From NCBI GenBank assembly GCA_042562855.1, contig JBHPNE010000003.1:6366-70365 (forward strand): 64,000 nucleotides of DNA. Reading direction: 5' to 3'. The position numbers were made by a program, and so were the translations under genes. Numbering within the stretch: position 1 is the stretch's first letter; each line of letters begins with the position of its first letter. Positions 10,096 through 63,703 of this stretch are shown piece after piece. Under the pieces are notes generated by a model. The model was given only the letters and a program-made list of their open reading frames with translations, was not told the DNA's origin and ran no database searches. Source of the stretch: Elusimicrobiota bacterium (GTDB taxonomy: Bacteria; Elusimicrobiota; Endomicrobiia; Endomicrobiales; JAPLKN01).

Positions 10096-10189
10096 ATTAA
10101 AACATTAATTTATCCCACAATTGTATTTGAATTACAGCCATTTTTCTTTTTACAAACACACCTATTAAATACCTTTAAAAACGAGTATA

Positions 10190-10214
10190 AAACAGGTATA
10201 TTCTATACCTGTTT
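10190..10214. promoter_or_regulatory. 25-bp palindrome AAACAGGTATA-TTC-TATACCTGTTT (candidate regulator site, alternatively a weak terminator)
   Basis: Perfect 11-bp arms read directly. It lies 9 bp upstream of a TTGACA box. The core CAGGTATA/TATACCTG recurs at 21212-21231, with half-sites at 17164-17256. Confidence 0.55.
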
Positions 10215-10222
10215 CTTAATTC

Positions 10223-10251
10223 TTGACAATACTTTAGAATATTGTTATATA
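10223..10251 (+). promoter_or_regulatory. sigma70-like promoter TTGACA-N17-TATATA for the ArsR-type gene
   Basis: -35 at 10223-10228 and -10 at 10246-10251. The sequence CTTAATTcTTGACAAT is shared 16/17 with 21247-21262. Confidence 0.55.
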
Positions 10252-10267
10252 CATATCATGCAGAGGT

Positions 10268-10291
10268 GTGCATATGCGCAGATATGCATAT
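10268..10291. promoter_or_regulatory. operator-like duplicated self-palindromic TGCATATG boxes
   Basis: gTGCATATGcgcagaTATGCATATGt sits just downstream of the predicted -10, inside the leader of the ArsR-type gene. Confidence 0.35.
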
Positions 10292-10348
10292 GTCAAGAGT
10301 TTTAAAACAAGAAAGCATTGATTCGGCATTCTGTTCGGAGATAAGGTT

Positions 10349-10633
10349 ATGGAAGATCAGGTAAAGGTAATAAAAACATTGTCTGAAAAAAACAGGTTCG
10401 CGGTATTTTCATTCCTTTTAGAACGCAAAAAGGAATACTGTGTGCTTGATATTGCTAAGGAAACAAACCTTAAACAGTACAATGTTTCCAGGTATTTAAA
10501 AGAGTTAAAAAATGCTGACCTGGTTACCGAAAAACGGAAAGGGCAGTTTGTTTATTATAAGGTAAACAAAGCCAAAAGCGCTTATGCTCAGAATTTAATG
10601 AATTGTCTAAAAGATATGAAAAAGACAGGTTAA
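10349..10633 (+). CDS. ArsR/SmtB-family winged-helix transcriptional regulator
   Basis: 94 aa. The pattern RFAVFSFLL...EYCVLDIAKETNLKQYNVSRYLKELKNADLVTEKRKGQFVYYKV matches the ArsR HTH plus wing. Only one Cys, so no obvious metal site. Confidence 0.8.
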   Translation: MEDQVKVIKTLSEKNRFAVFSFLLERKKEYCVLDIAKETNLKQYNVSRYLKELKNADLVTEKRKGQFVYYKVNKAKSAYAQNLMNCLKDMKKTG

Positions 10634-10702: not shown

Positions 10703-10731
10703 TTGGCAAATCGGGGGGTGTAGACTATAAT
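10703..10731 (+). promoter_or_regulatory. sigma70-like promoter TTGGCA-N17-TATAAT for the first fibre operon
   Basis: -35 at 10703-10708 and a perfect -10 TATAAT at 10726-10731. A second weaker candidate, TTGACT-N17-TACAAA, lies at 10751-10779. Confidence 0.45.
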
Positions 10732-10884
10732 ACGCGTTGTAGCAAGAAAATTGACTCAAAAATGTTAAACTTTTACAAAAAATTTTGAAGTCTTATGCAG
10801 TTTTTTCAACTGCGGGTTGTATAAAGAACCCACAGTGTGATTTTTTTGAGTTATACATACGGAAAGATCAAGGAGACTACAAAT

Positions 10885-11088
10885 ATGCTAAAAGAGTTTC
10901 GTTTGCCAGAGGATTATGAATACCAGAAGGACTTGATTGAGCAGGCCACTCTCGATAATCCCCTGTACATATCAAGGAAATCCTTGCCAATAGTTTTGAC
11001 ATTGTCGTACGAAGTCAAGATCGTTCCCATGGAAGGGGGCGATCTTTTTTTAATATATATGGATTGTTACAATTCACTGGAAAGTTAA
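10885..11088 (+). CDS. small hypothetical protein (67 aa), first gene of the fibre operon
   Basis: ATG is 9 nt after AAGGAG (10870-10875). The ORF-track start at 10837 (GTG) lacks an RBS. No signal peptide and no recognisable family. Confidence 0.5.
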   Translation: MLKEFRLPEDYEYQKDLIEQATLDNPLYISRKSLPIVLTLSYEVKIVPMEGGDLFLIYMDCYNSLES

Positions 11089-11121
11089 AGAAGCAAAAAT
11101 AAAAAAAAGGAGGACAAGGCA

Positions 11122-12360
11122 ATGGGCACAAAAGTTTTTTCAAAGTTGCTTGTAGTTGTCATGCTCATTTCCGTTCCGCTGACTTTGGCCTATGCGGGAC
11201 TGAAAACTGACAACTTCGAAGCAACGTACGGCGTAGTGGCAGGTACCGGTACTTTTAGTAGCGGCATATCTGCTAGCACAATTTCGGTAACGTCCCAGAC
11301 AGGTTTCAGACTGGGTGTTTCGACGACAGCAGGATATGTTCTAACCACAGATGCAAACGGTGTGGGTACATGGCAGCCATCGGTAGCAGGAGTTTCAGAT
11401 CATGATGCTCTCACATCAACTGGGACATTAACACATCTTGAGCTTGAAGCCCAAATTACTGCTCTCGATGCATCCACAATCACGTTGAGGACCGATGTAA
11501 ATACCCTCGATGCGTCCACGCAAACGCTGAGTACGGCTGTAAGTAACAGGTTGCTAAATACCAGCGATACGTTGACGGGAACATTAACCGTAACGGCCGG
11601 TGTTGCAGCATCTACCGGTGTATTTAGCGGAACTTTAGACGCAGACACGCTTAATACCGGAAATGGCGATTATGAGCTTTTTGCTATGAATCAGGATGTA
11701 GAGACGACTGATGATGTGACGTTCAGCTCACTATCGGTTACCAACCTCGGTGGTTTCAGAATAGGAGTATCCACGACAGCTGGATATGTTCTAACCACAG
11801 ATGCAAACGGTGTGGGTACATGGCAGCCATCGGTAGCAGGAGTTTCAGATCATGATGCTCTCACATCAACTGGGACATTAACACATCTTGAGCTTGAAGC
11901 CCAAATTACTGCTCTCGATGCGTCCACAATCACGTTGAGGACCGATGTAAATACCCTCGATGCGTCCACGCAAACGCTGAGTACGGCTGTAAGTAACAGG
12001 TTGCTAAATACTAGCGATACGTTGACGGGAACATTAACCGTAACGGCTGGTGTTGCAGCATCTACCGGTGTATTTAGCGGAACTTTAGACGCAGACACGC
12101 TTAATACCGGAAACGGCGATTACGAACTTTTCGCCATGGATCAGGATGTTCAGACGACTGATGATGTAACATTCAGCTCAGCCACAATTACCAATACTCT
12201 TACAGCAAGCGGCGATCTAGCACTTTCTGCTACATCCACTGTTTTATACGGACCGGATGATACAGACGGCAGCTGGAAAACCGTAAGGGTCGGCAACGAT
12301 CTCGTAACATATCGTTACGATACCGATACTTGGGTAGAAAAATACAGGGTTATTCCGTAA
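11122..12360 (+). CDS. secreted fibre-like protein with an internal 150-aa tandem duplication
   Basis: 412 aa with AGGAGG RBS and signal peptide ...LTLAYA. Thr/Ala/Gly/Asp-rich, with two copies of FR.GVSTTAGYVLTTDANGVGTWQPSVAGVSDHDALT... Confidence 0.85.
   Translation: MGTKVFSKLLVVVMLISVPLTLAYAGLKTDNFEATYGVVAGTGTFSSGISASTISVTSQTGFRLGVSTTAGYVLTTDANGVGTWQPSVAGVSDHDALTSTGTLTHLELEAQITALDASTITLRTDVNTLDASTQTLSTAVSNRLLNTSDTLTGTLTVTAGVAASTGVFSGTLDADTLNTGNGDYELFAMNQDVETTDDVTFSSLSVTNLGGFRIGVSTTAGYVLTTDANGVGTWQPSVAGVSDHDALTSTGTLTHLELEAQITALDASTITLRTDVNTLDASTQTLSTAVSNRLLNTSDTLTGTLTVTAGVAASTGVFSGTLDADTLNTGNGDYELFAMDQDVQTTDDVTFSSATITNTLTASGDLALSATSTVLYGPDDTDGSWKTVRVGNDLVTYRYDTDTWVEKYRVIP
11302..12201 (+). 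repeat. 2 x 450-bp in-frame tandem duplication
   Basis: 11302-11751 versus 11752-12201. The core 11332-11663 versus 11782-12113 differs at only 3 positions (11472, 11562, 11598), all third-codon and synonymous. The edges are clearly more diverged. Confidence 0.97.
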
Positions 12361-12421
12361 ACGTAATTTCGCCGGGATTATTTCATTGTTTATCGTGAAA
12401 AATCCCGCAGAGGTGAAAGAA

Positions 12422-13024
12422 ATGTCTAGGATAAAAGGAAACTTAATAAACGAAAGATTCTTAAAAGTTCTTGCCAGTGGTGCAGGTTTTGCATTCGGCA
12501 GGAAACGTTTATTGTCTTATTCCATTTTATTCTTATTTACAGGAGTTTCTTTTGCTCTGATAATCGGCGGAGGATACATAGTTGAATTCGCAAGACTTGT
12601 TGGCAGCGGCGGCCAAAGGTTGGCCAGCTCCAATTACGTTTTAAACGGAGCGGGTATAGAGAGTATAGGAGGTTTATCAATGGCGGGCGGAGTGTACTCA
12701 ATAGATACCAGCCAATCAACAGGCGTTGCCAAACTAGAGGCGGATTTAACAATTGCCCATTGCTATCCGAATCCATACAAGCCTAACTCAGGGTTAGGCC
12801 ATAACAAAATAACGTTTTCGCATACCACAGCGTATACGAAACTTATGGTGTTTAATATAGCAGGAGAACTGGTTTACAGTACAGAAGCCGATACGCCTAC
12901 AGGCGAACTTGAATGGAATGTGCGAAATAATGCAGGCGAAAAAGTTGCCTCAGGCGTATATCTGTATCTGTTAACCGATAATGAAGGACACAAGAAAGTA
13001 GGCAAGTTTGCGATTTTGAGGTAA
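12422..13024 (+). CDS. membrane-anchored mini-protein ending in a T9SS-type / FlgD-Ig-like C-terminal domain
   Basis: ATG follows GAGGTGA (the ORF-track TTG at 12386 is less likely). Has a basic N-region plus one hydrophobic helix. C-terminus: YPNPYKP...ITF...LMVFNIAGELVYS...WNVRNNAGEKVASGVYLYLLTDNEGHKKVGKFAILR. Confidence 0.75.
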   Translation: MSRIKGNLINERFLKVLASGAGFAFGRKRLLSYSILFLFTGVSFALIIGGGYIVEFARLVGSGGQRLASSNYVLNGAGIESIGGLSMAGGVYSIDTSQSTGVAKLEADLTIAHCYPNPYKPNSGLGHNKITFSHTTAYTKLMVFNIAGELVYSTEADTPTGELEWNVRNNAGEKVASGVYLYLLTDNEGHKKVGKFAILR

Positions 13025-13042
13025 ATCCTAAACGGAGGAGAA

Positions 13043-14173
13043 GTGCAAAGGCTTGGTTGGTTATCATTACTCTTAATATCAGTCTTTTTTGCAAGCGTCC
13101 TTTATGCGGCGGCTCCTACAAGCTTCCGTTATCAGGGCACCTTGAAAGAGAATGAAAAAGTGGTAGATGGTACAAAAACCATGCGTTTCCGTTTTACCAA
13201 TTCTGACGGTTCAACACAGTATTGGACCAGCGGGAATGTTGCCGTTACAGTTACGGGCGGTGTTTTCAGTACTGAACTTACTCCGTCGGTAGACTGGAAC
13301 AATATCCCCGGAGGAGGCTATTATCTGGAAATATCCGTTGAGGGAGAGGTTCTTCTTCCGAGAGAAAAAGTTTTATCAAACATTTATTCGCTTCATGCAA
13401 GAAATATAGATGACGGTATTGTAACACAGGCAAAATTAGACACTGGTGTAGCTGCTCAGTTGAATCTTGGTACTCATATTGCGACCACCACTCTTAATAT
13501 GTCTAACCAGCAAATATCAAATGTCGGAGCCTTCCATTATCCTGTTGGGCATACTGCCGGAGATGTTTTGACCGTAGATGCCGCAGGTAATGCTTCCTGG
13601 GGTAACCCGGGAGTTGTAGCTGGTACAGGTGATAGTTTGGGAAGTCATATTGCAACAATGACTCTTAATATGGCAAATTTTGCCATAATAAATTCAAGCG
13701 GTTTCCAGATGACTACCGGTGCATCTTCAGGCTATGTTTTAACTTCAGACGGCGCAGGTTATGCAAGCTGGGCTGCTCCAACAGGCGACAGCTTGGGTAC
13801 ACATGTAGCAACTCAAACATTAAATATGTCGGGTTTTGGAATTTCCAATGCTGCAAGTTTCCAGATGACAACAGGTGCATCTGCAGGCTACATTTTAAGT
13901 TCTGATGGTTCAGGTAATGCAGCTTGGATTTCTACATCAACATTTGCCGGAGACAATTTCGGAAATCATGTAGCTACTACAACAGTAAACATGAGTAACA
14001 ATGACATAATCAATGTAAAGGATGTTAAATCCAGCACAACATCAGTTTTTTATTTAGGTGATGAAAACACCGACGGAACATGGAGATTTCAGGTGGACGG
14101 TAATGGAGATTTAATATTTGAAAAGAGAATTGGCGGATCCTATGTGACACAAACCACGATAGACGCGCCCTAA
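13043..14173 (+). CDS. secreted fibre-like protein with ~50-aa repeats
   Basis: 376 aa with a GTG start behind GGAGGAG and a signal peptide. N-domain: FRYQGTLKENEKVVDGTKTMRFRF...YLEISVEGEVLLPREKV. Then four units of G(D)sLG.H.AT.TLNMs...I.N...F.MTTGAS.GY.L.SDG.G.A.W. Confidence 0.85.
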   Translation: MQRLGWLSLLLISVFFASVLYAAAPTSFRYQGTLKENEKVVDGTKTMRFRFTNSDGSTQYWTSGNVAVTVTGGVFSTELTPSVDWNNIPGGGYYLEISVEGEVLLPREKVLSNIYSLHARNIDDGIVTQAKLDTGVAAQLNLGTHIATTTLNMSNQQISNVGAFHYPVGHTAGDVLTVDAAGNASWGNPGVVAGTGDSLGSHIATMTLNMANFAIINSSGFQMTTGASSGYVLTSDGAGYASWAAPTGDSLGTHVATQTLNMSGFGISNAASFQMTTGASAGYILSSDGSGNAAWISTSTFAGDNFGNHVATTTVNMSNNDIINVKDVKSSTTSVFYLGDENTDGTWRFQVDGNGDLIFEKRIGGSYVTQTTIDAP

Positions 14174-14218
14174 ATCTAAGGAAAATAATTTCATAAAAAT
14201 ATATACGGATAAAAATAA

Positions 14219-14989
14219 ATGAAATTTTACATTAAATCAATTCTTTACTTTTCCATATTATTTATAACTGGTTTAGCAAATGCAGGTTTTGTTTCAGACA
14301 GGGTTGGAGTAGGTATCGTAAATCCAAATGATCTGGAAGTAGCAGGCAGAATCACAGTGTCTTCTTTTACAATGACAACCGGGGCTTCCAGCGGTTATGT
14401 ACTCAGGAATAGTGTTGGTGGAAACGCATATTGGTGTGCCTGCGTGGCTATTAGTTCAACAAATACTTGGTCAGGGGGTAATACCTATTTGGGTGCTTCA
14501 ACGATGACGGCCTTGACTCTCGATACAATAAATCACAAATCGGCATTGATAACTATAGCAAACGACAGCAACGACTTTGTAACATCCGGGACAGGAAATA
14601 TTGGTATCTCTACGGGAGTTCCGCAGGCAAAACTTGATGTTAACGGAGCTGTTTTAAGCAACCAAACTATACTTTCAAATACAGACGGTGGTGCAACTTT
14701 AGATTTTACCGGGATCAACAGCTACATTTATTATTATAATGCAAACGGGGCGTCATCGCCAACCAATGTAACAGCAATTACCGGAGGGGAAGCAGGGCAA
14801 ATGGTTACATTTTTTTATTACAGAACTGCTAGTCCCACAAATAGAAATCTGACAATAGTGAACAAGGCAGGAGCTAATGGGATTGTAACCGGCACAAACG
14901 GTAATATAACATTAACTGCAAACGATGGAGGTTGCCTAATTCTATGTTTTAACGGCACATATTGGTATATTGTTAACGCTCAGCTTTAA
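14219..14989 (+). CDS. secreted fibre paralog, shared N-module plus tip type A
   Basis: 256 aa. Signal peptide ...GLANA is followed by GFVSDRVGVGIVNPNDLEVAGR...SSFTMTTGASSGYVL...STNTWSGGNTY...GNIGISTGVPQAKLDVNGA. Ends FNGTYWYIVNAQL. Confidence 0.85.
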   Translation: MKFYIKSILYFSILFITGLANAGFVSDRVGVGIVNPNDLEVAGRITVSSFTMTTGASSGYVLRNSVGGNAYWCACVAISSTNTWSGGNTYLGASTMTALTLDTINHKSALITIANDSNDFVTSGTGNIGISTGVPQAKLDVNGAVLSNQTILSNTDGGATLDFTGINSYIYYYNANGASSPTNVTAITGGEAGQMVTFFYYRTASPTNRNLTIVNKAGANGIVTGTNGNITLTANDGGCLILCFNGTYWYIVNAQL

Positions 14990-15003
14990 AATTAGGAGAT
15001 ATA

Positions 15004-15750
15004 ATGATTAAAAAAATACTGTTTATCCCATTTTTGTTCTTATTTGCTTCGCCTCTTATCGGAGGAGTTGTTTCAGATAGGGTAGGCGTTGGCAATGTTT
15101 CTAATCCGACGGATCTTGAAGTAAGCGGAAGGGTTACGGCATCCTCTTTTACAATGACTACAAACGCCGTAGATGGATATATTATTATTTCAGATGCGGA
15201 TGGAAACGGAACCTGGCAGGTACCATATGGATTTGCACTGCTTGCTTCAACAAACACTTGGACAGGGGGAAACACCTGGTTACTACCTTCAACAATGACG
15301 ACTTTAGCAGTGGATACAATCAGTCACAACTCAAAGTTGATAACAATAGCAAATGACGGAAATGACGTGGTAACCTCCGGAACCGGCAATGTCGGTATCG
15401 GCACAATAACGCCTCAGAAAAAACTTGATGTGGAAGGGGCCATAGTAAGTAAACAAAATACAGCAACACTGAATGGTACAGCAACTACAATAGATGTTGC
15501 AGATTGCAACAGCGTTAGCTTAACAGTGAATTCCAGCACAAATTTAAACGGATTCACAAATGGTGTAGCTGGCCAAACCGTTTGCATATTTAATACTTCC
15601 ACCACGAATAATGTGGTTTTGGTCAACCAAAACGCTACAGGTACAGGCATTACAACAGGCACAGGTGGAAATGTTACCGTTACTGCTGAGGGTGGAGCGG
15701 TCTTCACTTTTGATGGTACCTATTGGTATATGGTTGGTTTGCAGCAGTAA
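15004..15750 (+). CDS. secreted fibre paralog, shared N-module plus tip type A
   Basis: 248 aa with AGGAG RBS. Same module order as the 14219 gene and ends FDGTYWYMVGLQQ. Confidence 0.85.
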   Translation: MIKKILFIPFLFLFASPLIGGVVSDRVGVGNVSNPTDLEVSGRVTASSFTMTTNAVDGYIIISDADGNGTWQVPYGFALLASTNTWTGGNTWLLPSTMTTLAVDTISHNSKLITIANDGNDVVTSGTGNVGIGTITPQKKLDVEGAIVSKQNTATLNGTATTIDVADCNSVSLTVNSSTNLNGFTNGVAGQTVCIFNTSTTNNVVLVNQNATGTGITTGTGGNVTVTAEGGAVFTFDGTYWYMVGLQQ

Positions 15751-15779
15751 TTTAGAGTTTTGAAAATGGCATTAATAAA

Positions 15780-17084
15780 ATGAAAAAATTCAAAGTATTC
15801 ATTTTAACAATTTTTTTTTTAAGTATTAATTCTTCCCTCTTTGCCTATGCGGGAAGCACCGCGGCATCTTTCCTTAAAATCGGCACTGGAGCAAGAAACC
15901 TTTCGATGGCAGGCGTGGGCGCAGTAAGCAGAGACGTTAATGCCATATACTACAATCCTTCAGGTCTTTGCTTTGTGGAAGAACAGCAGTTTACATTCAT
16001 GCATCTTAAGTGGTTTCAGGATATAAACTATCAAAACCTTTCCTATGCCGCATGCCCTATTGGTGAACATCATTTCGGAGCATCCATCAATTACCTTTCC
16101 ATGGACGAAATAGAAAAATACGATGTCAACGATAATCCTTTGGGAAGCACCTACAGTCCGTTTGATTTCTCCGCTACGTTTGCTTATGCCACGCCCTTGC
16201 GCGAAGATTTCTTCGTCGGAGCAAATTTGAAATTCATCAGTTCTCAGATTGATGATACCAATGCCTGGACAATAAGCGAAGATCTAGGAGCAACATATAC
16301 GGGATTTGAAAAATTCACTCTTGGTGCATCAATACAAAATATCGGAGGCAGTTTAAAATATGTGGCGGAGGAGGAGAAGCTCCCCTTAAATTTAAAAGTC
16401 GGCGCTGAATATGTATGGGAATATAACGACAAAATAAAGCCTAAATTTTATATGGATATTAATCAGAGCACGGAACTGGACCCATACATAAATGTTGCAG
16501 GAGAGATGGATTTCAAACCCTCAGACAATGACAAAATGTCTTATTCGTTAAGGTTAGGTTACAGAACAAGGGACAGATACTCAAGCGGCGTGGGTTTTTC
16601 CGCAGGTGCTGGAATAGTTTTTGATAATATGGGCCTGGATTTTGCATGGGCTCCTTACGGTGAGCTGGGAGAAACTTACGGAGTATCCCTAAACTTTAAG
16701 CTGGGGGTATGTAAAGACAAACCGAAAAAGAAAGAGCGTCCGAGAGAAGAAGTTCTGGAAAAAAAGAAGGAAAAAAAGGAAAAAACCAAACCGGCGTCCG
16801 TTGTTTCCCTCAATTTGTCGGGCAAAGCTGAAACAGCCAGCTCTATACGCTGGAAATGGAATAAAATCTCAAGTGCCTCCGGATACCGTATTTACGATGG
16901 CAAAACGGACAAATTGCTTGCAGAATTTTCAGATAATAAGACTTCCTGGCTTGAGTTAAAGCTAGAACCTGAAATGGAATACAGCCGCTACATAAAAGCA
17001 TATTATGCCCAAGGCACAGCAAGAGAAAAATCCTCAAAGAAAATATCGGTCAAAACATCCGTCAAAAAATGGAAGTTCTTCTAA
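15780..17084 (+). CDS. PorV/PorQ-like outer-membrane beta-barrel fused to a Lys/Glu linker and an FN3-like domain
   Basis: 434 aa. After the signal peptide comes GSTAASFLKIGTGARNLSMAGVGAVSRDVNAIYYNPSGL, the hallmark PorV/UPF0164-type N-terminus. An alternating barrel-like body follows. The KE-rich linker is at ~16710-16790. The C-terminal SIRWKWNKISSASGYRIYDG...LEPEMEYSRYIKAYY is FN3-like. Confidence 0.7.
   Translation: MKKFKVFILTIFFLSINSSLFAYAGSTAASFLKIGTGARNLSMAGVGAVSRDVNAIYYNPSGLCFVEEQQFTFMHLKWFQDINYQNLSYAACPIGEHHFGASINYLSMDEIEKYDVNDNPLGSTYSPFDFSATFAYATPLREDFFVGANLKFISSQIDDTNAWTISEDLGATYTGFEKFTLGASIQNIGGSLKYVAEEEKLPLNLKVGAEYVWEYNDKIKPKFYMDINQSTELDPYINVAGEMDFKPSDNDKMSYSLRLGYRTRDRYSSGVGFSAGAGIVFDNMGLDFAWAPYGELGETYGVSLNFKLGVCKDKPKKKERPREEVLEKKKEKKEKTKPASVVSLNLSGKAETASSIRWKWNKISSASGYRIYDGKTDKLLAEFSDNKTSWLELKLEPEMEYSRYIKAYYAQGTAREKSSKKISVKTSVKKWKFF
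15811..15820 (+). repeat. T10 homopolymer inside the signal-peptide codons of the PorV-like gene
   Basis: Ten consecutive T read directly (codons ATT TTT TTT TTA). Confidence 0.95.
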
Positions 17085-17218
17085 AAAATTCCGTCTCACC
17101 GAAGACTAAAAAACCTCAAAAAAAACACAACTTCTATTGCGATTTTAATAGGTAGATAGCGATTATACCTGTTTATTTTTAAAAAATGGGACACGATATT
17201 CTTTTTTTAAAAAACAGC

Positions 17219-17247
17219 TTGAAAAACAGGTTAAAATATTATAGTAT
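17219..17247 (+). promoter_or_regulatory. candidate promoter TTGAAA-N17-TAGTAT of the large regulator gene, overlapped by AAACAGGT half-sites
   Basis: -35 at 17219-17224 and -10 at 17242-17247. AAACAGGT occurs at 17224-17231 (spacer) and 17249-17256 (around the expected start site). TATACCTGTTT is at 17164-17174. Confidence 0.4.
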
Positions 17248-17301
17248 CAAACAGGTCAGATATTAAACTGTTTTGCAAAAATGGGTATTTGGGGATAAAT
17301 T

Positions 17302-20300
17302 GTGAATACAAAAGACAACAAAAAGCAATCTTCACTCTGTTTCGAGGGGATGGAACATTCCGCTATAATTTATGAGACCGAAGCAGAACATAAAGCGGTA
17401 GTATCCAAGTGGATAGTTGATGGGCTAAAGCAAAAGAAAAAAGTTCTGTATATTTTGGATAATCACTCGCGGGAAACAATAACCGGCTATTTAAAAGAAT
17501 CCGGTTTAGACCTCAAACAATATCTCGACTCCGGCCAGCTGCAAATCATTCCTCAAAGCGAGCTTTATGTTATTGATGGAAACTTTGATCCCGACCGCAT
17601 AGTCAGCTTTTACAAATCAGAAATAAAGAAAGCAAAAGATTCACACTTTTCAGGAGTGAACATAAGCGTAGAAATGTCCTGGATGAAAAGTTTTAAACCA
17701 GGCGATGAGAGATTGCTATCTTACAGAATGAAAATGTCGGATTTAATTCAAGAAAGTAAGATTTCTCTCCTTTGTCAGTTTAATAAAAATACGTTTAGCG
17801 CAGAAATGCTTTTGGCTGTTATAAGGAACCATTCTACTTTGTTCATTGGCAGCGAAAAGATTTCAAATTTAGCATCTTTGTCGGCAGAAGAATACCCCAA
17901 TCCGGACTCCGCAGAAGCAATTCTATCTCATACTATCAAGTCGCTCATTGTACAAAAAAATGGGAAAGCAAGGTTCGAGGCGCTTGAAGATGAGTTTTTG
18001 AGTCTTGCCGAAGCTCAATCCATTTGGATTTGGGAAACAGACAAGGAGGGAATATATAATTACTCAAACACAAAGGTTAAGGATTTTTTTGGAATTGATA
18101 AAAATGAAATTGTAGGGAAAATTTCTTTTGACTTTTTGCCGGAAGCGTTTGCAAAAGCAGTAAAAATAACGTGTGAAGAGCTAATGGCAGGAAAGATGCT
18201 TCAGAAGCAAATAGAAAACAGAGTTTTAGACAAGGAAGGGCATGAAGTTTTCTTTGAGTCAACAATTTGTGTTTTATTTGACAGTGAAAGAAATCACAAA
18301 GGCTTCAGGGGTACCGTAAAAGACATTACGGAAAAAAAACACGAAAATGAACAAATAGAAAAAAATAAGGTCTTATTTGAAAATATTTCCAGAATGGCTC
18401 CCGTGGGAATTTTCCGAACTGATGAGCATGGACTATGCACATATGTAAATGAAAAATGGCTTGAAATTGCGTCTCTAAAGCCACAAGAAGCTTTAGGGGA
18501 AGGCTGGACAAACGGTTTATATCCGGAAGATAAGGAAACGGTTTTTAAGGTATGGGCAAATGCTATTAAAAACAATTATAATTTCAAACTGGAATACAGA
18601 TTCGGGAAACCATATTCAAAAATTACGTGGGTATTGGGCCAGGCGATGGCCGAAAAAGATTCAGACGGAAAAATAACCGGATATGTCGGTACAATAACGG
18701 ACATAACTGAACGGAAAAAATATGAAACGCAAATCAGCGAGTCCGAAGAAAAAATACGTACCATCATAGAATCTAACAGAGATATTATTTTTTCTCTCGA
18801 TTCCGGCGGTTTTGTAAAATATATCTCGCCTCAGATTTCTAAATACGGGTATAACGAAGAAGATTTGATGGAGCATAAATTCGACAAGTTTATTCACCCA
18901 CAGGACGTTGTTTCGGAATCTAATATCTTTAAACAAATCCTCGAGTTTGATTTGGCGACACCTCCGCATTCATTCCGGTTTAAGAAAAAGGACGGCCAGT
19001 TTTGTTATTTGGAGGCGTTATCTAGGAAGAGGGTGCTCGATAACGGATCTGTTGAAGTTATATCAACAGTGAGAGACGTTACTTCACGTATTCGCTCTGA
19101 AAAAGCCTTAAGCATAATAAATAAAACGTTTTTGTCTTTCGGGCCGAATCCTTTGGAAAATATCGGCCGCATGGCCCATGCTGCAGGAGAAATATTGGAA
19201 GCTGTATGTGTGCTTTATAACCGCAAAGAGGGGGATATGCTTCATACTTTAGCGGGCTGGCAGATTCCTCGGGATATGCCGCTTTCCGACAAGGGTAAGG
19301 GACATATTTGTTTTGATGTTATTGACAACGGCGGGGATGAGCCGTTTGTACTGGATAATCTTCAAGAATCGTCTTATATGAACACCGATCCTAACGTAAA
19401 AAAATACGGGCTTAAAACTTACGCAGGGTTTGCAGTAAAAGTTGGAACCCAGGCAGTAGGTGCTTTTGGGGCCGTTTATCAGGATGATAGAAAATTTGAA
19501 ACTTTCGAGCTTAGCATTTTAAAGATTATGGGATTGGCAGTCTCTATTGAAGAAGAGCGTTTAGCAGATAAAGATAAAATAGTCGAGACGTCCCGGCTTT
19601 TTTCTTCAATTACTCAGTTGGCTCCGGTCGGAATATACAGGAAGGATATTGAGGACAAATACGTATACACAAATAAACGATGGGGCGAAATTTCAGGGCT
19701 CTCGTGTGAGGAAGCCTTGGGAGATGGTTGGAAAAAGGCTTTGTATCCGCAAGATAAAAGCTATGTTGATAAAGAGTGGGAAAATTCGGTTGCAACAGGG
19801 AAACCGTACAGACTAGAGTACAGATTCCTAAGAACCGACGGAACAATATCCTGGGTATTAGACCGTTTATTGCCGGAAAAAGATAAAGAAGGGAACATTA
19901 CTGGATATATTGGCGCCATAACGGACCTTACAGGCATAAAAGAACTGAAAGCAAAACTGGATAAAAGCGAAGAAAATTACAAAAATATTTTAGAAAGTAC
20001 CGTGGATATTATTCAAGTTGTTGATTTCGACGGGACTATTAAATTTTGCAGCCCTCAAATTGAGCAGCTGGGCGATACTGTTGAGAATGCGGTCGGTAGA
20101 AATGTGGCTGAAATTGTTCATCCAGAGGACAGAAAAATGCTGTTTGATGCTTTTGAGAGTGTTGCAAAAGGCAATGATGGCGGAAGCGTTGTAGCACGTT
20201 ACAAAAAGCCGAACGGTGAATATGTATCTTTGGAAGGCTCCGGAAAGTTAAGCCGGGACAGGTTTAATAATCCGCAAATGACGGTTGTGTTAAGAGATGT

Positions 20301-21150
20301 TTCTGAGCGTATTGAATATGAAAAAAAGCTGGCGTTCAGGACAATTGTTATGGAGACTCAAATTCACCTATCTCCCGATGCTGTTTTGGTAGTGGACAGA
20401 GAAGCCAAACCATACCTTCATAACAAGAAGTTTATAGAATTATTTGATACCCCTGAGGACTTCTTGTCACAGAAGGGCCAAGAGAAGGTTTGGAAAATGC
20501 TTACGGAAAAAATTAAAGATCATGAAAGTTTTTTTGAGAAAATCAAGTATTTATATTCGCAGCCTAAAGAAGTCGGGTCTGGTGAGCTTGAAATGAAAAA
20601 CGGAATGTTCGTGAAATGGAATTCTGTACCACTTTTTGATAAAAAGAAGAATTTTAATTATGGCAGGGCATGGTTTTTTAGTGATATCACAAATTCAAAA
20701 AAGGAAAATTTGGATCTTTCTTTACTTTCAAAAAATCTTGAGAATAAAACAATAGCTTTAAAAGAGCTTCTTGCCCAGGTAGAGATAGAGAAAAAAGAAT
20801 TCGGAGAAAATTTGTTAAAAAATATAGAAAGGACTGCCCGTCCTCTCATCGGAAAGATAAGAAGAATGAAGGTTCCCAAAATCAGCAAATATCTTGAAAT
20901 GCTGGAAAAGGATCTGGACAATCTTGCATCTCCTTTCGGAAAGATAGTTGAATCTCCAAGGACCAGGCTTTCTCCTCGTGAAGTGGAAATTTGTAACATG
21001 ATACGAAATGGTTATAAGAATGCAAAAATTGCTAAGATCCTGAAGGTTTCAGGCCACACCATTCAAACCCATAGAAGGGCCATCCGAAAGAAGCTTGGCA
21101 TTGGCAGAAAAAAGATTAATTTATCCACCTATCTGCAGCAGGGCCATTAG
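17302..21150 (+). CDS. cytoplasmic MEDS - multi-PAS - GAF - PAS - LuxR/GerE HTH regulator
   Basis: 1282 aa with a GTG start. N-terminus is MEDS-like (HSAIIYETEAEHKAVVSKWIVDGLKQKKKVLYILD...). About six PAS-like units each end in ...DIT.RK-type motifs. GAF region around HAAGEILEAVCVLYN...GAFGAVYQD. C-terminal LSPREVEICNMIRNGYKNAKIAKILKVSGHTIQTHRRAIRKKLGI. Confidence 0.85.
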   Translation: MNTKDNKKQSSLCFEGMEHSAIIYETEAEHKAVVSKWIVDGLKQKKKVLYILDNHSRETITGYLKESGLDLKQYLDSGQLQIIPQSELYVIDGNFDPDRIVSFYKSEIKKAKDSHFSGVNISVEMSWMKSFKPGDERLLSYRMKMSDLIQESKISLLCQFNKNTFSAEMLLAVIRNHSTLFIGSEKISNLASLSAEEYPNPDSAEAILSHTIKSLIVQKNGKARFEALEDEFLSLAEAQSIWIWETDKEGIYNYSNTKVKDFFGIDKNEIVGKISFDFLPEAFAKAVKITCEELMAGKMLQKQIENRVLDKEGHEVFFESTICVLFDSERNHKGFRGTVKDITEKKHENEQIEKNKVLFENISRMAPVGIFRTDEHGLCTYVNEKWLEIASLKPQEALGEGWTNGLYPEDKETVFKVWANAIKNNYNFKLEYRFGKPYSKITWVLGQAMAEKDSDGKITGYVGTITDITERKKYETQISESEEKIRTIIESNRDIIFSLDSGGFVKYISPQISKYGYNEEDLMEHKFDKFIHPQDVVSESNIFKQILEFDLATPPHSFRFKKKDGQFCYLEALSRKRVLDNGSVEVISTVRDVTSRIRSEKALSIINKTFLSFGPNPLENIGRMAHAAGEILEAVCVLYNRKEGDMLHTLAGWQIPRDMPLSDKGKGHICFDVIDNGGDEPFVLDNLQESSYMNTDPNVKKYGLKTYAGFAVKVGTQAVGAFGAVYQDDRKFETFELSILKIMGLAVSIEEERLADKDKIVETSRLFSSITQLAPVGIYRKDIEDKYVYTNKRWGEISGLSCEEALGDGWKKALYPQDKSYVDKEWENSVATGKPYRLEYRFLRTDGTISWVLDRLLPEKDKEGNITGYIGAITDLTGIKELKAKLDKSEENYKNILESTVDIIQVVDFDGTIKFCSPQIEQLGDTVENAVGRNVAEIVHPEDRKMLFDAFESVAKGNDGGSVVARYKKPNGEYVSLEGSGKLSRDRFNNPQMTVVLRDVSERIEYEKKLAFRTIVMETQIHLSPDAVLVVDREAKPYLHNKKFIELFDTPEDFLSQKGQEKVWKMLTEKIKDHESFFEKIKYLYSQPKEVGSGELEMKNGMFVKWNSVPLFDKKKNFNYGRAWFFSDITNSKKENLDLSLLSKNLENKTIALKELLAQVEIEKKEFGENLLKNIERTARPLIGKIRRMKVPKISKYLEMLEKDLDNLASPFGKIVESPRTRLSPREVEICNMIRNGYKNAKIAKILKVSGHTIQTHRRAIRKKLGIGRKKINLSTYLQQGH

Positions 21151-21211
21151 CCGTAAAATTCCAAATTCGTAAAAACCCTGAAAATATTTTATCCTATTAA
21201 AAGTCAGTTAA

Positions 21212-21231
21212 CAGGTATATTTATATACCTG
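21212..21231. promoter_or_regulatory. 20-bp palindrome CAGGTATAT-TT-ATATACCTG
   Basis: 9-bp arms read directly, preceded by AA as at 10190. Lies 22 bp upstream of a TTGACA box. Confidence 0.55.
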
Positions 21232-21253
21232 ATAGGTACCAGATACTTAATTA

Positions 21254-21282
21254 TTGACAATTGATTGAAATTTCATTATATT
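21254..21282 (+). promoter_or_regulatory. sigma70-like promoter TTGACA-N17-TATATT for the paralog trio
   Basis: -35 at 21254-21259 and -10 at 21277-21282. CTTAATTaTTGACAAT matches the 10216-10231 module. Confidence 0.55.
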
Positions 21283-21315
21283 TACTGCATGTAGTAATAA
21301 TTGCAAAGGTATGTA

Positions 21316-22329
21316 ATGAAATTCTATTCTAAATGGTTGATACTGTTTTTAATAGTTTTATGCAGTAAAAATCTTTCCGCCGGTTTTGTTACCGATAAGC
21401 TGGGTGTAGGTACGGCAAATCCCACGGAAGTAGAAGTAATAGGCACTGTTAAAGCCTCTTCTTTTACAATGATAACAGGGGCCTCCGACGGATACATCCT
21501 TACCACTGATGCATCGGGCAACGGCACATGGCAAACAGCTTCTTTTCCTGATCCCGCACTTCTTATTAACTCAACAAATACATGGACAGCGGCAAACACC
21601 TGGCTTTCCTCATCGACATTCAATCAAAATTCGCTTGACAAGGATTTTCGCATAAAGGGACAGACCGATGCGAATTTGTTTTTCGCAGACGCCTCTGCCA
21701 ACCGCATCGGTATAGGGACCGATTCGCCTGTAGAAAAACTCACCGTTAACGGAAGGTTGGCAATAGCTGAAGGAGATCAGTGTGTCCCTTATTCAGGATA
21801 CGGAAACCTTTGCGTGGATAACGTTAATAAGCAGCTGTCTCATATGGAAGCTTTAGGCAGTATCGAGCTGATAACCCCAAGCTATGCTATTTTTCAGGAA
21901 CAGCAGCCGTCGGGAACTTCAGGCGGCGGATTTTCGGCAGGTTCATGGGTACAAAGAACTTTAAATACTACCATTGCTTCAAGAGGAACTAGCATAACCC
22001 GTTCCGGAAGCGATATAATTCTTTCTTCGGGTACCTACCAGGTAATGATAGAAGCGCCCGCTTACAGGGTAAATTTACATCAAACCAGGTTCTATAATGT
22101 TACGGACGGAGCTACGGCATTTTCCGGCAGTTCAGAATATTCAAGATCTTCGGCTGTGGGCGATTCTACCCCAAGCTTATTGCACGGAGCTGTAGTGATA
22201 ACGGATCAGAAAACTTTCAGGATAGAGCACCGGTGCGGAACCGCAAATGCTACTGACGGTTTTGGAAATGCGTCCGGATTCGGGGAAACAGAAGTTTATA
22301 CCTATTGTTTTATACAAAGGTGCAAGTAG
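21316..22329 (+). CDS. secreted fibre paralog, shared N-module plus tip type B
   Basis: The ATG at 21316 (MKFYSKW...) is preferred over the ORF-track TTG at 21301. Signal peptide ...NLSA, then GFVTDKLGVGTANPTEVEV...SSFTMITGASDGYILTTDASGNGTW...STNTW...NRIGIGTDSPVEKLTVNG. C-terminal tip contains SGTSGGGFSAGSWVQRTLN... Confidence 0.85.
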   Translation: MKFYSKWLILFLIVLCSKNLSAGFVTDKLGVGTANPTEVEVIGTVKASSFTMITGASDGYILTTDASGNGTWQTASFPDPALLINSTNTWTAANTWLSSSTFNQNSLDKDFRIKGQTDANLFFADASANRIGIGTDSPVEKLTVNGRLAIAEGDQCVPYSGYGNLCVDNVNKQLSHMEALGSIELITPSYAIFQEQQPSGTSGGGFSAGSWVQRTLNTTIASRGTSITRSGSDIILSSGTYQVMIEAPAYRVNLHQTRFYNVTDGATAFSGSSEYSRSSAVGDSTPSLLHGAVVITDQKTFRIEHRCGTANATDGFGNASGFGETEVYTYCFIQRCK

Positions 22330-22340
22330 AAGGGTAAAAA

Positions 22341-23354
22341 ATGAAGCTTAAAAATTTTATAATTTTAAATACAATAACTTTTCTTATTTTTTTCGTGCAA
22401 TTGCTTAATGCAGGAATAGTGACTGACAGGGTTGGGATCGGTTCTATAAGCGACCCGACAGATCTTGAAGTGTTAGGAAGAGTAACTTGCTCAACTTTTA
22501 CGATGACAACCGGAGTATCTGCGGGATATGTGCTTAAATGCGATGCAGCAGGAGCGGCATACTGGGCCGCAGCCGTTGACTGCAGTATTTTAAATGCCAC
22601 AAACACATGGACTGCACCCAACTCCTGGACATCTTCATCTATATTCAATGCAAATATGCAGGATAAGGATTTCAGGATAAAGGGGCAGTTAGACGCGGAT
22701 CTTTTCTTTGCTGATGCTTCTCAAAACGAAGTCGGTATTGGCACATCGGCTCCTCACGCAGAGATTACCTTAAACGGCCGGCTTGCATTGGCAGAAACTA
22801 CCGTACCGACTGCATCATCAGGATACGGAAAACTATTTTGCAAAGCAACTGACAGCCAGCTTTATTATCAGGACGGTACAGGAGATACTGTTCTAGTCAG
22901 CGGCCAGTTTGCTTCCATTGAAGACCAAAAAACATCAGGAACTAACGGCGGAACCTTTACCTCAGGTGCCTGGCAGACAAGGACTTTGAACGCAGTTCAG
23001 GCTTCACGTGGAAGCTTTTTTTCGCTTTCGTCAAACCAGGTTACTTTGGCCGCAGGAACATACAGAATAATGGCGTCGGCGCCGGCATATTACGTAGGGG
23101 CGCATAAATTGAGGTTACGAAATATTACAGACGGTACGACGGCTGTTTATGGCACAGCAGCGCTTTCAAATACTTCTACCCAGGCTTCTTCAGGAAGAAG
23201 TGTATGCCAGGGAATAGTTACCATTGCGGCCCAAAAGACTTTTGAAGTCCAGCATTATTGCGCGAGCACAAGAGCTACTGACGGTTTAGGGCAGGCGGCC
23301 GGTTTTGGCGATACGGAAATATATGCGATTTTATGCATACAAAAGATAAGATAG
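22341..23354 (+). CDS. secreted fibre paralog, shared N-module plus tip type B
   Basis: 337 aa with the same architecture. Tip: SGTNGGTFTSGAWQTRTLN...GTYRIMASAPAYYVGAHKLRLRNITDG...KTFEVQHYC...DGLGQAAGFGDTEIY. Confidence 0.87.
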   Translation: MKLKNFIILNTITFLIFFVQLLNAGIVTDRVGIGSISDPTDLEVLGRVTCSTFTMTTGVSAGYVLKCDAAGAAYWAAAVDCSILNATNTWTAPNSWTSSSIFNANMQDKDFRIKGQLDADLFFADASQNEVGIGTSAPHAEITLNGRLALAETTVPTASSGYGKLFCKATDSQLYYQDGTGDTVLVSGQFASIEDQKTSGTNGGTFTSGAWQTRTLNAVQASRGSFFSLSSNQVTLAAGTYRIMASAPAYYVGAHKLRLRNITDGTTAVYGTAALSNTSTQASSGRSVCQGIVTIAAQKTFEVQHYCASTRATDGLGQAAGFGDTEIYAILCIQKIR

Positions 23355-23400
23355 TGCGGTTTTTTATTCTATATAGTTTTAAGTTTAAAAGGCGAAAAAA

Positions 23401-24423
23401 ATGGAATTAATGAGAAAGTTTAAAATTTTTATTACCAGCCTTTTTATATTTTTAGTTTTAATAACAAATATTCTGCATGCGGGCATTACGACCGATAGGA
23501 TCGGCATAGGGTCGGTAAGTAATCCGACAGACTTAGAAGTCAGCGGAAAAATCACGGCTTCATCATTTACCATGACAACTTCTCCCACAAACGGTTATGT
23601 TCTTCAATGCGATGCTTCTGGAATCGCTTCCTGGGCGGATGCGTCTGACTGCAACCTTTTGACCATGGCAAATACTTGGACGGCACCCAATTCCTGGCTT
23701 TCATCTTCAACGTTTAACGCGAATTCCGGTGACAACGATTTGCAGATAAAGGGGCAAACCAATGCCAATGTTTTTTTTGCCGATGCTTCTTTTGACAGGA
23801 TAGGTGTGGGAACAGGAACTACGAATGAAAAACTTACCGTCAACCATCATTTTTCCCTGGTCGAAACCACCGTTCCGACCGCATCATCAGGATACGGAAA
23901 AATATTCTGTAAATCAAGTGATGGTCAGTTTTATTTTCAGGATGACTCCGGAGACACGGTTTTGCTTTGTAAACATTTTGTATCTATTCGGGACGAAAAA
24001 GCCTCGGGTACCGCCGGCGGAACTTTTACCTCAGGCGCATGGCAGACTAGGACTTTGAATGCCGTTCAGGCGGCAAGCGGAGACTTTTATTCGCTTTCGT
24101 CAAATCAGATAACTTTAGCGACGGGTACTTACAGAATTCTTGCATCGGCTCCTGCATATTATGTGGATTCGCATAAGGCAAGGTTTCAGAATGTTACCGA
24201 CGCAACAACAGCCATTTACGGTGCTTCTGCGTTGGCTAAGGCTTCGACTCAGGCTTCATCGGGAAGAAGTATTGTAATGGGGGTAATTACGATAGCTGCG
24301 CAAAAAACTTTTGAACTCCAGCATAGGTGTGCAACCACGAGAAATACAGACGGTTACGGACAGGCGGCGAATTTCGGCGAAACTGAAGTTTACTCGGCCA
24401 TCTGCATCATGAGACTAAAGTAG
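23401..24423 (+). CDS. secreted fibre paralog, shared N-module plus tip type B
   Basis: 340 aa, the closest paralog of the 22341 gene. Contains a T8 run at 23771-23778. Its stop codon lies inside the left REP-like hairpin. Confidence 0.87.
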   Translation: MELMRKFKIFITSLFIFLVLITNILHAGITTDRIGIGSVSNPTDLEVSGKITASSFTMTTSPTNGYVLQCDASGIASWADASDCNLLTMANTWTAPNSWLSSSTFNANSGDNDLQIKGQTNANVFFADASFDRIGVGTGTTNEKLTVNHHFSLVETTVPTASSGYGKIFCKSSDGQFYFQDDSGDTVLLCKHFVSIRDEKASGTAGGTFTSGAWQTRTLNAVQAASGDFYSLSSNQITLATGTYRILASAPAYYVDSHKARFQNVTDATTAIYGASALAKASTQASSGRSIVMGVITIAAQKTFELQHRCATTRNTDGYGQAANFGETEVYSAICIMRLK

Positions 24424-24438
24424 GGACAGCGCCTACTT
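24418..24438. repeat. REP-like hairpin, left copy (7-bp stem, 7-nt loop)
   Basis: Read directly. Contains the stops of the 23401 gene (+) and of the transposase (-). Confidence 0.9.
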
Positions 24439-25110
24439 TATGGCTTCTTTTCTCGGCCTTCCCATCTTTGGGGAAGTTAATTTCTTACCAAACTTATTTT
24501 CTAAGTTTTTAATAAATGCAGTAGCTCCAAAAGGCAGACCGGACAACGTGTGTTTTCGTATTGCAGTAACGGCATTCTCTTCTTCTTGCCCATCAATGTA
24601 TTTTTTCCATTTATTTATATTCATATCTAAATAACGAAAAATATTTTCCAATTTTATTTTAGGTACTCCCAAGCCGGTGTTAGCTAAGGCGCTAGACCAT
24701 TCCCAATCCCACGGTTTCTTAACTTGTTTTGATCGGACAGGGTTTTTCTCAATGTATCTTGCGGCGGAAAGTAAATGAATTTCATCCAAAACGCAAGAAA
24801 AAAACCGTCCTTGCCACAGATGACCGCAAGAATTATTTTTCCGATTAAAATATTGAGCATATTTCATGTGTGTTGCATTGAAAGTTCTTGAAAGAGAATC
24901 TTCTTTTGAGGGGATTGCTATAAAGTGGACATGATTACTCATAAGACAGTAAGATAAAATACTTAGTCCATATTTTTTGCTGTATTCGCCAATACAGGAA
25001 AGATAATATTTCCTGTCAATGTCATCGAAAAAAACAGTTTGTTTGTTGTTGCCCCGCTGTGTGATGTGATGGGGGAGGCCGATCGCTACAATTCTGGCTG
25101 TTCGTGGCAT
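24433..25110 (-). CDS. IS200-like / RayT-like HUH tyrosine (Y1) transposase
   Basis: 225 aa. N-terminal LPHHITQRGNNKQTVFF, HUH motif SNHVHFIAIP, and catalytic-Tyr region ARYIEKNPVR. Confidence 0.85.
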   Translation of the reverse strand: MPRTARIVAIGLPHHITQRGNNKQTVFFDDIDRKYYLSCIGEYSKKYGLSILSYCLMSNHVHFIAIPSKEDSLSRTFNATHMKYAQYFNRKNNSCGHLWQGRFFSCVLDEIHLLSAARYIEKNPVRSKQVKKPWDWEWSSALANTGLGVPKIKLENIFRYLDMNINKWKKYIDGQEEENAVTAIRKHTLSGLPFGATAFIKNLENKFGKKLTSPKMGRPRKEAIK

Positions 25111-25146: not shown

Positions 25147-25167
25147 AAGTAGGCGCTGTCCCTACTT
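25147..25167. repeat. REP-like hairpin, right copy (loop inverted relative to the left copy)
   Basis: Read directly. Contains the stop codon of the aminotransferase gene (-). Confidence 0.9.
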
Positions 25168-63314: not shown

Positions 63315-63323
63315 AGTAAATTA

Positions 63324-63703
63324 TGGAGGTGGCGGGAATCGAACCCGCGTCCGAAAGTATTTCAGTCAGGTTCCTACAGGTTTAGTTGGAAATGTTTTTT
63401 GTCTTAAAGCTGCTTTCCAACAAGATCACTCTAAGACTAGTTCCGTTATTGTTTCATTAAATTCAGACGGAACATGCTGAACATAACTAACCCACTCTTG
63501 ATGCTTTATCTCCCTAGTGGATGTCGGAAGTAAAGCATGGCTGCGTTAAGCAGCCAGTGGCATAACTCCGGAAAATCCGAAGCTGTTGCCAACAGGCATT
63601 AATTTTTTGCCGTTTTTAGTTTGGTCGATTTATACCGAGCCTTCGACCAACTCGGACCTGCCCCCTGTGCGTCAACTACCCTCGTCGAGACCTATTCACC
63701 CCC
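63324..63703 (-). ncRNA. ssrA: tmRNA (SsrA)
   Basis: The minus strand reads 5' GGGGGTGAATAGGTCTCGACGAGGG ... GGACGCGGGTTCGATTCCCGCCACCTCCA 3'. Has a 7-bp acceptor stem with a G3-U pair and a T-arm. Internal tag frame ...GGC AAC AGC TTC GGA TTT TCC GGA GTT ATG CCA CTG GCT GCT TAA (…GVMPLAA*). The 3' CCA is not encoded. Confidence 0.93.

Follow-up and report, generated by a model that had tools for sequence, protein, structure and literature searches.

We tentatively interpret the 20-bp palindrome in front of a trio of paralogous genes as the operator of a dimeric HTH transcription factor encoded in the same accessory gene cluster, lying where an activator would bind and with a LuxR-type protein as its likeliest binder; this is the explanation we prefer, at slightly less than an even chance. 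The palindrome is made up of CAGGTATAT (21212-21220), TT (21221-21222) and ATATACCTG (21223-21231), where positions are those of the window, by which we mean the whole 64-kb stretch of DNA that was analyzed. It can be extended to a 12-2-12 form in which 11 of 12 pairs are complementary, and 61 nt separate it from the end of the LuxR-type regulator gene. An earlier note on this DNA had described the palindrome, a TTGACA-N17-TATATT promoter and an ATG at 21316, all of which direct reading of the sequence confirmed, and had called the arrangement the second copy of a palindrome-plus-promoter module. The copy proved genuine in its arms, in its promoter and in the match of that promoter to the first one. 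The first copy, ACAGGTATA-TTC-TATACCTGT at 10192-10212, is here called module 1, and the copy in front of the trio module 2. Also present, as had been noted, is an extra half-site-like element, AGGTACC, at 21234-21240 on the 3' side of the module 2 palindrome; with the right arm of the palindrome this element makes up a further, overlapping palindrome of 5-3-5 geometry, TACCT-GAT-AGGTA (21226-21238).

The window is chromosomal, with rpsD, rpoA, rplQ, mreBCD, PBP2, rodA and RNase G genes upstream of the cluster, and rplU, rpmA and obg, followed by aromatic amino-acid, ilv, thi and que genes, downstream. Between the RNase G gene and an aminotransferase gene lies the accessory cluster, which consists of an ArsR-type gene, a structural operon, a LuxR-type gene, the trio and a RAYT-like gene. 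Coordinates of the features discussed are collected in Table 1. The ArsR-type and LuxR-type genes are the only genes for DNA-binding regulators in the 64 kb. The product of the former scores 65.9 bits with NF033788 (cutoff 55) and also matches SmtB and CzrA; the HTH of the latter resembles dimeric DNA binders of solved structure, including the PAS(LOV)-HTH activator EL222, SdiA, NarL and RcsB.

Table 1. Positions in the window of the palindromes, predicted promoters and genes of the accessory cluster.
Feature	Position	Strand	Description
CCTATTAAA copy, module 1	10161-10169	+	62 bp 5' of -35
Module 1 palindrome	10190-10214		AAACAGGTATA-TTC-TATACCTGTTT; perfect 11-3-11
Predicted promoter of ArsR-type gene	10215-10263	+	CTTAATTCTTGACAAT; -35 10223-10228; -10 TATATA 10246-10251; CATGCAG 10257-10263
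Second, distinct motif: tandem ATGC-N8-GCAT palindromes	10258-10289		ATGCAGAGGTGTGCAT and ATGCGCAGATATGCAT; single occurrence in the window
ArsR/SmtB-family regulator gene (94 aa)	10349-10633	+	NF033788, SmtB/CzrA matches
Structural operon linked to the trio	11122-17084	+	412, 212, 376, 256, 248 and 434 aa; predicted promoter 10703-10731
Third, imperfect palindrome	17147-17173		AATAGGTAGATA-GCGAT-TATACCTGTT; T-rich run 3' of it
Predicted promoter of LuxR-type gene	17219-17273	+	TTGAAA 17219-17224, N17, TAGTAT 17242-17247
MEDS-PAS(x5)-LuxR/GerE HTH one-component regulator gene (1282 aa)	17302-21150	+	domain matches
CCTATTAAA variant half-site, module 2	21193-21201	+	61 bp 5' of -35
Module 2 palindrome	21209-21234		12-2-12 form TAACAGGTATAT-TT-ATATACCTGATA; core 21212-21231
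Extra half-site and overlapping 5-3-5 palindrome	21226-21240		sequence reading
Predicted sigma-70-type trio promoter	21246-21294	+	block CTTAATTATTGACAAT 21246-21261; -35; -10; CATGTAG 21288-21294
Paralog trio	21316-24423	+	21316-22329, 22341-23354, 23401-24423

The motif is not a chance match. The pattern AGGTA-N3-13-TACCT occurs three times in the window (10194, 17150 and 21213) against an expectation of 0.32, none of 100 shuffles reached three, and all three matches fall in intergenic gaps of this one cluster. A scan of the 64 kb for the dimer, allowing up to three mismatches, returned sites at 10193, 17149 and 21212 and one weak match in coding sequence. The three gaps (10096-10348, 17085-17301 and 21151-21315) sum to 635 nt, or 1% of the window, and within them were found five of the six window copies of the 8-mer CAGGTATA (hypergeometric p about 5e-10) and five of the seven copies of the 8-mer AAACAGGT (p about 2e-9). 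Half-sites of the core AAACAGGTATA are nearly confined to the gaps before the ArsR-type gene, the LuxR-type gene and the trio, in an accessory cluster of 11 kb. The CCTATTAAA variant, which reads AATAGG on the minus strand and is a half-site with a C-to-T change, has only three copies in the window, one for each palindrome. Recurrence of a symmetric site beyond chance at the promoters of a linked gene set is expected of an operator, and such a site is what these gaps contain. The + strand copies of AACAGGT include some in coding sequence of the cluster (10391, 11545, 11995 and 13870), and 10 of the 16 copies in the window lie between 10.1 and 21.3 kb; those in coding sequence may reflect codon or amino-acid usage and not binding sites.

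Among 2.9 million viral contigs there were 25 matches to the palindrome pattern, near a rough chance estimate, and no public sequencing run containing either module was found. No Rfam family matched in the cluster gaps. A literature search with the arm sequences retrieved unrelated primers only, and the literature on 'MEDS domain' together with LuxR held nothing usable about binding sites.

Both perfect palindromes lie 5' of good -35/-10 pairs with 17-nt spacers. The trio promoter, with TTGACA at 21254-21259 and TATATT at 21277-21282, matches the sigma-70 consensus at 11 of 12 positions, and the TTGACA-N17-TATATA of module 1 matches at 10 of 12, the conserved final T of the -10 being absent; each thus has the TTGACA -35, TATAAT-like -10 and 16-18 bp spacing of sigma-70-type promoters. 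Canonical -35/-10 promoters of this type appear to be a fair model for the organism, because four of the five 11/12 matches between 8 and 27 kb are intergenic and the fifth (26368) is at the first bases of the aminotransferase gene. If transcription starts near 21289, as predicted, the leader of the first trio gene would be about 27 nt long, in agreement with the roughly 30 nt proposed earlier, and an RBS-like AAAGG is found at 21305-21309. The predicted module 1 promoter would serve the ArsR-type gene, and the structural operon has a predicted promoter of its own.

The likeness of the two promoters extends beyond their hexamers. When anchored on TTGACA, the segments are identical at 35 of 56 ungapped positions, compared to a mean of 19.8 +/- 3.3 and a maximum of 28 for 351 other TTGACA-anchored pairs, and the frequency of 35 matches among random intergenic pairs is 3e-5. 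CATGYAG occurs at an equal offset 3' of the -10 in both, and the block CTTAATTNTTGACAAT is found in the window only at 10215 and 21246. That the promoters have a block in common was correctly observed in the earlier note, but the match is 15/16 and not 16/17. A similar division applies to the suggestion that the two transcription units were wired into one regulon by duplication: the 35/56 match fits common ancestry, but the relationship is not one of simple block duplication, because the distance from palindrome to -35 is 12 bp greater in module 2 than in module 1.

The gap that separates the PorV-like gene from the LuxR-type regulator gene contains a third palindrome, missed in the earlier note, with an exact right arm (TATACCTGT), two mismatches in the left arm and a spacer of 7 nt. 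Half-sites were also found in the promoter of the LuxR-type gene, where AACAGGT (17225-17231) falls inside the spacer and AAACAG-N13-CTGTTT (17249-17273), which has the same outer frame as module 1, spans the predicted start site; neither the half-site at 17225 nor the one at 17250 is part of a hairpin. Two patterns of conservation favor an operator: the arms are identical across copies while the spacers differ (TTC vs. TT), and at 17149 the left arm has diverged beside an exact right arm without compensating changes.

As an operator, the palindrome would present two inverted AAACAGGTATA half-sites 2-3 bp apart. The palindromes are centered at 10202 and 21221.5, which is 21 and 32.5 bp before the respective -35 hexamers, and from the predicted start sites the centers would be at about -56 for the ArsR-type gene and about -67.5 for the trio, positions that are 11.5 bp, or about one helical turn, apart. 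These are activator-type positions upstream of the promoter, and therefore binding would be expected to activate transcription or relieve silencing, not to block the promoter. The likeliest binder would be the MEDS-PAS-LuxR regulator, which is encoded between the two modules, and the half-sites in the spacer and at the predicted start site of its own gene might provide negative autoregulation. A signal perceived at the MEDS/PAS domains would then switch on the trio fiber genes and the ArsR-type sub-regulator, forming a small local regulon. Because the ArsR-type gene has a unique palindrome of its own, the AAACAGGTATA motif is left for the LuxR-type protein, and it is by parsimony alone that the site would be assigned to this protein over the ArsR-type one. 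The sequence itself shows the motif, its statistics and positions, the likeness of the promoters and the family link between the gene sets; that a protein binds, which factor it is, whether it activates or represses and where transcription starts are inferred.

Operators of the LuxR/FixJ/NarL families share with the sites described here a two-fold symmetry of about 20 bp, a neighboring gene for a GerE-type HTH protein and a location 5' of a sigma-70 promoter. The arm TACCTGT agrees at six of seven positions with the NarL heptamer, TACYYMT, but the half-sites of NarL 7-2-7 sites have the opposite orientation. The lux box is a 20-bp palindrome near -42.5 with the sequence CTG-N10-CAG. The sites in the cluster are similar in size, but they differ from the lux-box type in their centers (about -56 and -67.5 vs. 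-42.5) and in their arms, CAG-N13/14-CTG. Sensing also differs, since the LuxR and NarL families use acyl-homoserine-lactone-binding or receiver domains and the regulator here has MEDS and PAS domains for this purpose. Proteins of the EL222 type dimerize on a symmetric site in response to a signal and thereby activate the promoter nearby. EL222 resembles the LuxR-type protein in having a PAS-family sensor fused to a LuxR-type HTH, and the two HTHs match (E 9e-5), but the protein in the cluster is 1282 aa long, with a MEDS domain at its N-terminus plus about five PAS domains, and the DNA motif is unrelated.

It is possible, though unlikely in our judgment, that each of the upstream genes (the 216-aa, PorV-like and LuxR-type genes) has in its palindrome a 3'-end RNA hairpin, acting as a weak intrinsic terminator or stabilizer that insulates the next promoter, and that the shared sequence reflects descent only. 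All three palindromes are found 60-100 nt after the stop codon of a co-directional gene, a terminator-type location that weighs against an operator. The gap between the 8-mers varies as well, being 3, 4 and 7 nt over the three sites; such variation would suit a rigid dimer badly, but as loop lengths these values are harmless to a hairpin, and no other argument for a hairpin over a rigid dimer is stronger. Stability is moderate for module 1 (-11.9 kcal/mol, z -5.9) and module 2 (-9.6 kcal/mol), module 1 passes a terminator pattern scan, and T-rich runs follow module 1 and the third site. In contrast, no T-tract follows module 2, where the bases read ATAGGTACCAG, and its fold is ordinary (z -2.25, with 7 of 200 shuffles equally stable). 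The stem of the third site is broken and uncompensated (-7.7 kcal/mol, z -1.8), and the half-sites in the core promoter of the LuxR-type gene are unpaired. Rho-independent terminators likewise have a perfect hairpin 3' of a co-directional gene, and module 1 has an A-run on one side and a T-run on the other, but the stems here are AT-rich with just three G-C pairs, and their arm sequence is conserved across sites; identical arms at three sites are not needed for termination. With three G-C pairs of 8-9 and no T-tract, module 2 does not qualify as a Rho-independent terminator and module 1 does so weakly; in other parts of the window, terminator scans gave results too near background to define the typical terminator of this genome. 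The earlier argument against a plain terminator role, which was drawn from the missing T-tract, is supported, and the conserved arm sequence argues the same way.

The preferred operator could also have the ArsR/SmtB-type protein as its ligand, in which case this protein would regulate its own gene and control the trio and the LuxR-type gene, but we regard this as quite unlikely from the layout of the sites. The classic ArsR/SmtB operator layout is 12-2-12, and autoregulation is the rule in the family. Module 2 has this geometry with 11/12 pairs, module 1 directly precedes the arsR-type gene, and membership of the gene product in the family is clear. However, ArsR/SmtB operators overlap the promoter, whereas neither palindrome overlaps a -35 or -10 hexamer; the -35 is 8 bp from the site in module 1 and 19 bp from it in module 2, with the site on the upstream side, where a repressor would be poorly placed, and the 12-2-12 geometry is found in module 2 alone, module 1 being 11-3-11. 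The start-site region, which is the conventional position of an ArsR-family auto-operator, is taken up by a separate palindrome, as the tandem ATGC-N8-GCAT palindromes cover the predicted start site and leader of the ArsR-type gene. These tandem palindromes are probably a second operator and are the more conventional candidate for the auto-operator of the ArsR-type protein.

We think it improbable that the palindromes are functionless leftovers of a duplicated promoter region, or of an inserted palindromic unit, that have not yet decayed. Shared ancestry is suggested by the 62% identity of the promoter segments, and a RAYT-type transposase gene is nearby. Independent insertion could explain why the palindromes have different offsets inside a near-equal frame, in which CCTATTAAA and the -35 are 62 bp apart in module 1 and 61 bp apart in module 2. 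The 9-nt arm pairs, however, are identical at 18 of 18 positions, and next to promoters of only 62% identity and intervening segments no more alike than expected by chance, the arms look selected. The remaining 53 kb of the window, moreover, lack the motif, and the hairpin that flanks the RAYT gene is a different, GTAG-containing one. An independent-insertion model was considered separately and rejected: with the palindromes removed, the frames aligned at about 5/19 positions by eye, which is the chance level.

It is extremely improbable that the palindromes are hix-, dif- or lox-like targets at which a site-specific recombinase would invert or excise the 11-kb segment between the modules, for although inverted 9-12-bp arms around a 2-3-bp center look like core sites, and two copies flank the accessory segment, a third and a fourth site fall inside it, the centers (TTC vs. 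TT) are incompatible with strand exchange, and no recombinase or integrase gene was found within the 64 kb.

REP elements were also considered and rejected. Like REP sequences, the palindromes are short and intergenic with a conserved stem and a variable loop, and a RAYT-like gene is 3 kb away, but they lack GTAG, do not flank the RAYT gene and are restricted to one cluster. The RAYT-like Y1 transposase gene (24433-25110; NCBIfam REP_Tyr_transpos 65.6 bits, under the cutoff of 80) has 21-nt hairpins of its own. These are exact, GTAG-containing copies of AAGTAGGGACAGCGCCTACTT at 24418-24438 (+) and 25147-25167 (-), two copies against 0 expected by chance; read on the + strand, the flanks form direct repeats (..CCTACTTTATGGCTKCTT) with the 7-nt loop flipped. 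The stop codons of the third trio gene, the RAYT gene and the aminotransferase gene are all within these hairpins, and A-I-K is the C-terminal end of both the RAYT protein and the aminotransferase.

Comparison with other genomes was limited by the distance of the relatives found. A scan of genome contigs with the LuxR-type regulator gave distant PAS matches only, and a metagenome scan with the trio alignment gave domain-level matches only, mostly phage-like, none of which had the motif. No close homologs came up in word-index protein searches with the first trio protein, the regulator or the ArsR-type protein, and no sister-strain contig was retrieved by exact look-ups of the first trio protein, L27 and L21. 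The best full-length homolog of the trio is P0140, at 42-43% identity, from locus L056 (GCA_026388075.1). This locus is the sole homologous cluster found and is a distant one, in which the genes are kept at 36-55% amino-acid identity and the palindrome is absent. Its operon encodes, in order, a CTD protein, proteins of 412 and 373 aa, a trio-like protein and a PorV-like protein, so the trio-like gene lies within the operon and needs no separate promoter. Because no regulator gene is aboard the 8.9-kb contig, the absence of the palindrome there is not a clean refutation of the shared regulon. Two intergenic gaps of the contig (JAPLKN010000003.1, 816-830 and 4230-4244) share an exact 15-mer, TTTTCGGGGATAGGC, as well as additional inverted segments; the repeated element differs from that of the window but occupies equivalent relative positions. 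The operon promoter of this locus starts with CTTGACAATA, as module 1 does.

The trio proteins have signal peptides and are 45-47% identical to one another. Their AlphaFold model is confident for residues 190-337 only, and as modeled this region is a C1q/TNF-like jelly roll, with the BclA-type tip domain 9h38 as its nearest match (E 1e-6). A Pfam-A search with the trio gave no match, but profile search placed the C-terminal head domain of 150 aa in 20,610 representative clusters, 2,388 of them at E<=1e-30. Proteins P0132-P0279 have a head domain of this type, and many of its occurrences are in giant repeat proteins and in phage tail modules. An N-terminal module of about 180 aa is common to the trio and the 256-aa and 248-aa proteins of the structural operon at 31-36% identity, so that five proteins of the cluster are built upon one module. 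The 256-aa (14219-14989) and 248-aa (15004-15750) proteins have a trio-like signal peptide and this module, which has the pattern AG-x-V-T/S-DRVGVG ... DLEV-GR-T-S-FTMTT, without the C1q-like head. The operon also encodes a PorV/PorQ-family protein of 434 aa (NF033709, 180 bits) and a 212-aa protein bearing a T9SS C-terminal sorting domain. Because the N-terminal module is common to both and the trio-like gene of L056 is inside the operon, the trio and the upstream operon belong to one system, for which coordinated control is plausible.

If the palindrome is an operator, it would provide a testable motif and a candidate regulon for the MEDS-PAS-LuxR class of regulators, few of whose targets are known. 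A further gain would be insight into how a lineage-specific surface-fiber system is switched on, the system in question comprising the PorV/PorQ-family protein, the protein with the T9SS sorting domain and the five proteins with the N-terminal module, three of which are C1q/TNF-headed. A more elaborate proposal, which we find conceivable but doubtful, is that the MEDS-PAS-LuxR protein of this uncultivated, T9SS-carrying lineage runs a feed-forward circuit through the AAACAGGTATA palindrome, repressing itself while activating both the ArsR-type sub-regulator and the trio. Were this true, it would be the first operator and regulon for a MEDS-domain LuxR-type regulator, and it would tie a very widespread, unnamed family of head domains, also found in phage tail fibers, to a T9SS-linked surface structure. 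Otherwise the arrangement of palindrome and promoter is conventional and implies no new principle; the element is of an ordinary kind, though real and statistically solid, and has an unusual regulator beside it in a lineage that is sparsely sampled.

Two further features of the window were noticed. The structural operon is preceded by a TTGGCA-N17-TATAAT promoter and a leader of about 300 nt (10703-11121), in which there is a 67-codon ORF with a strong RBS and an ATG at 10885. A strong terminator hairpin with a T-tract (11017-11046, -18.6 kcal/mol, z -5.2) is inside this ORF and before the gene for the 412-aa protein. No Rfam family matched this stretch, which could function as an attenuator, as a leader or as a small RNA. 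The other feature, and the sole Rfam match in the window, is a full-length tmRNA gene on the minus strand (63321-63703), which ARAGORN, reporting no tRNA or tmRNA in the window, did not return, but which matches RF00023 with 157 bits.
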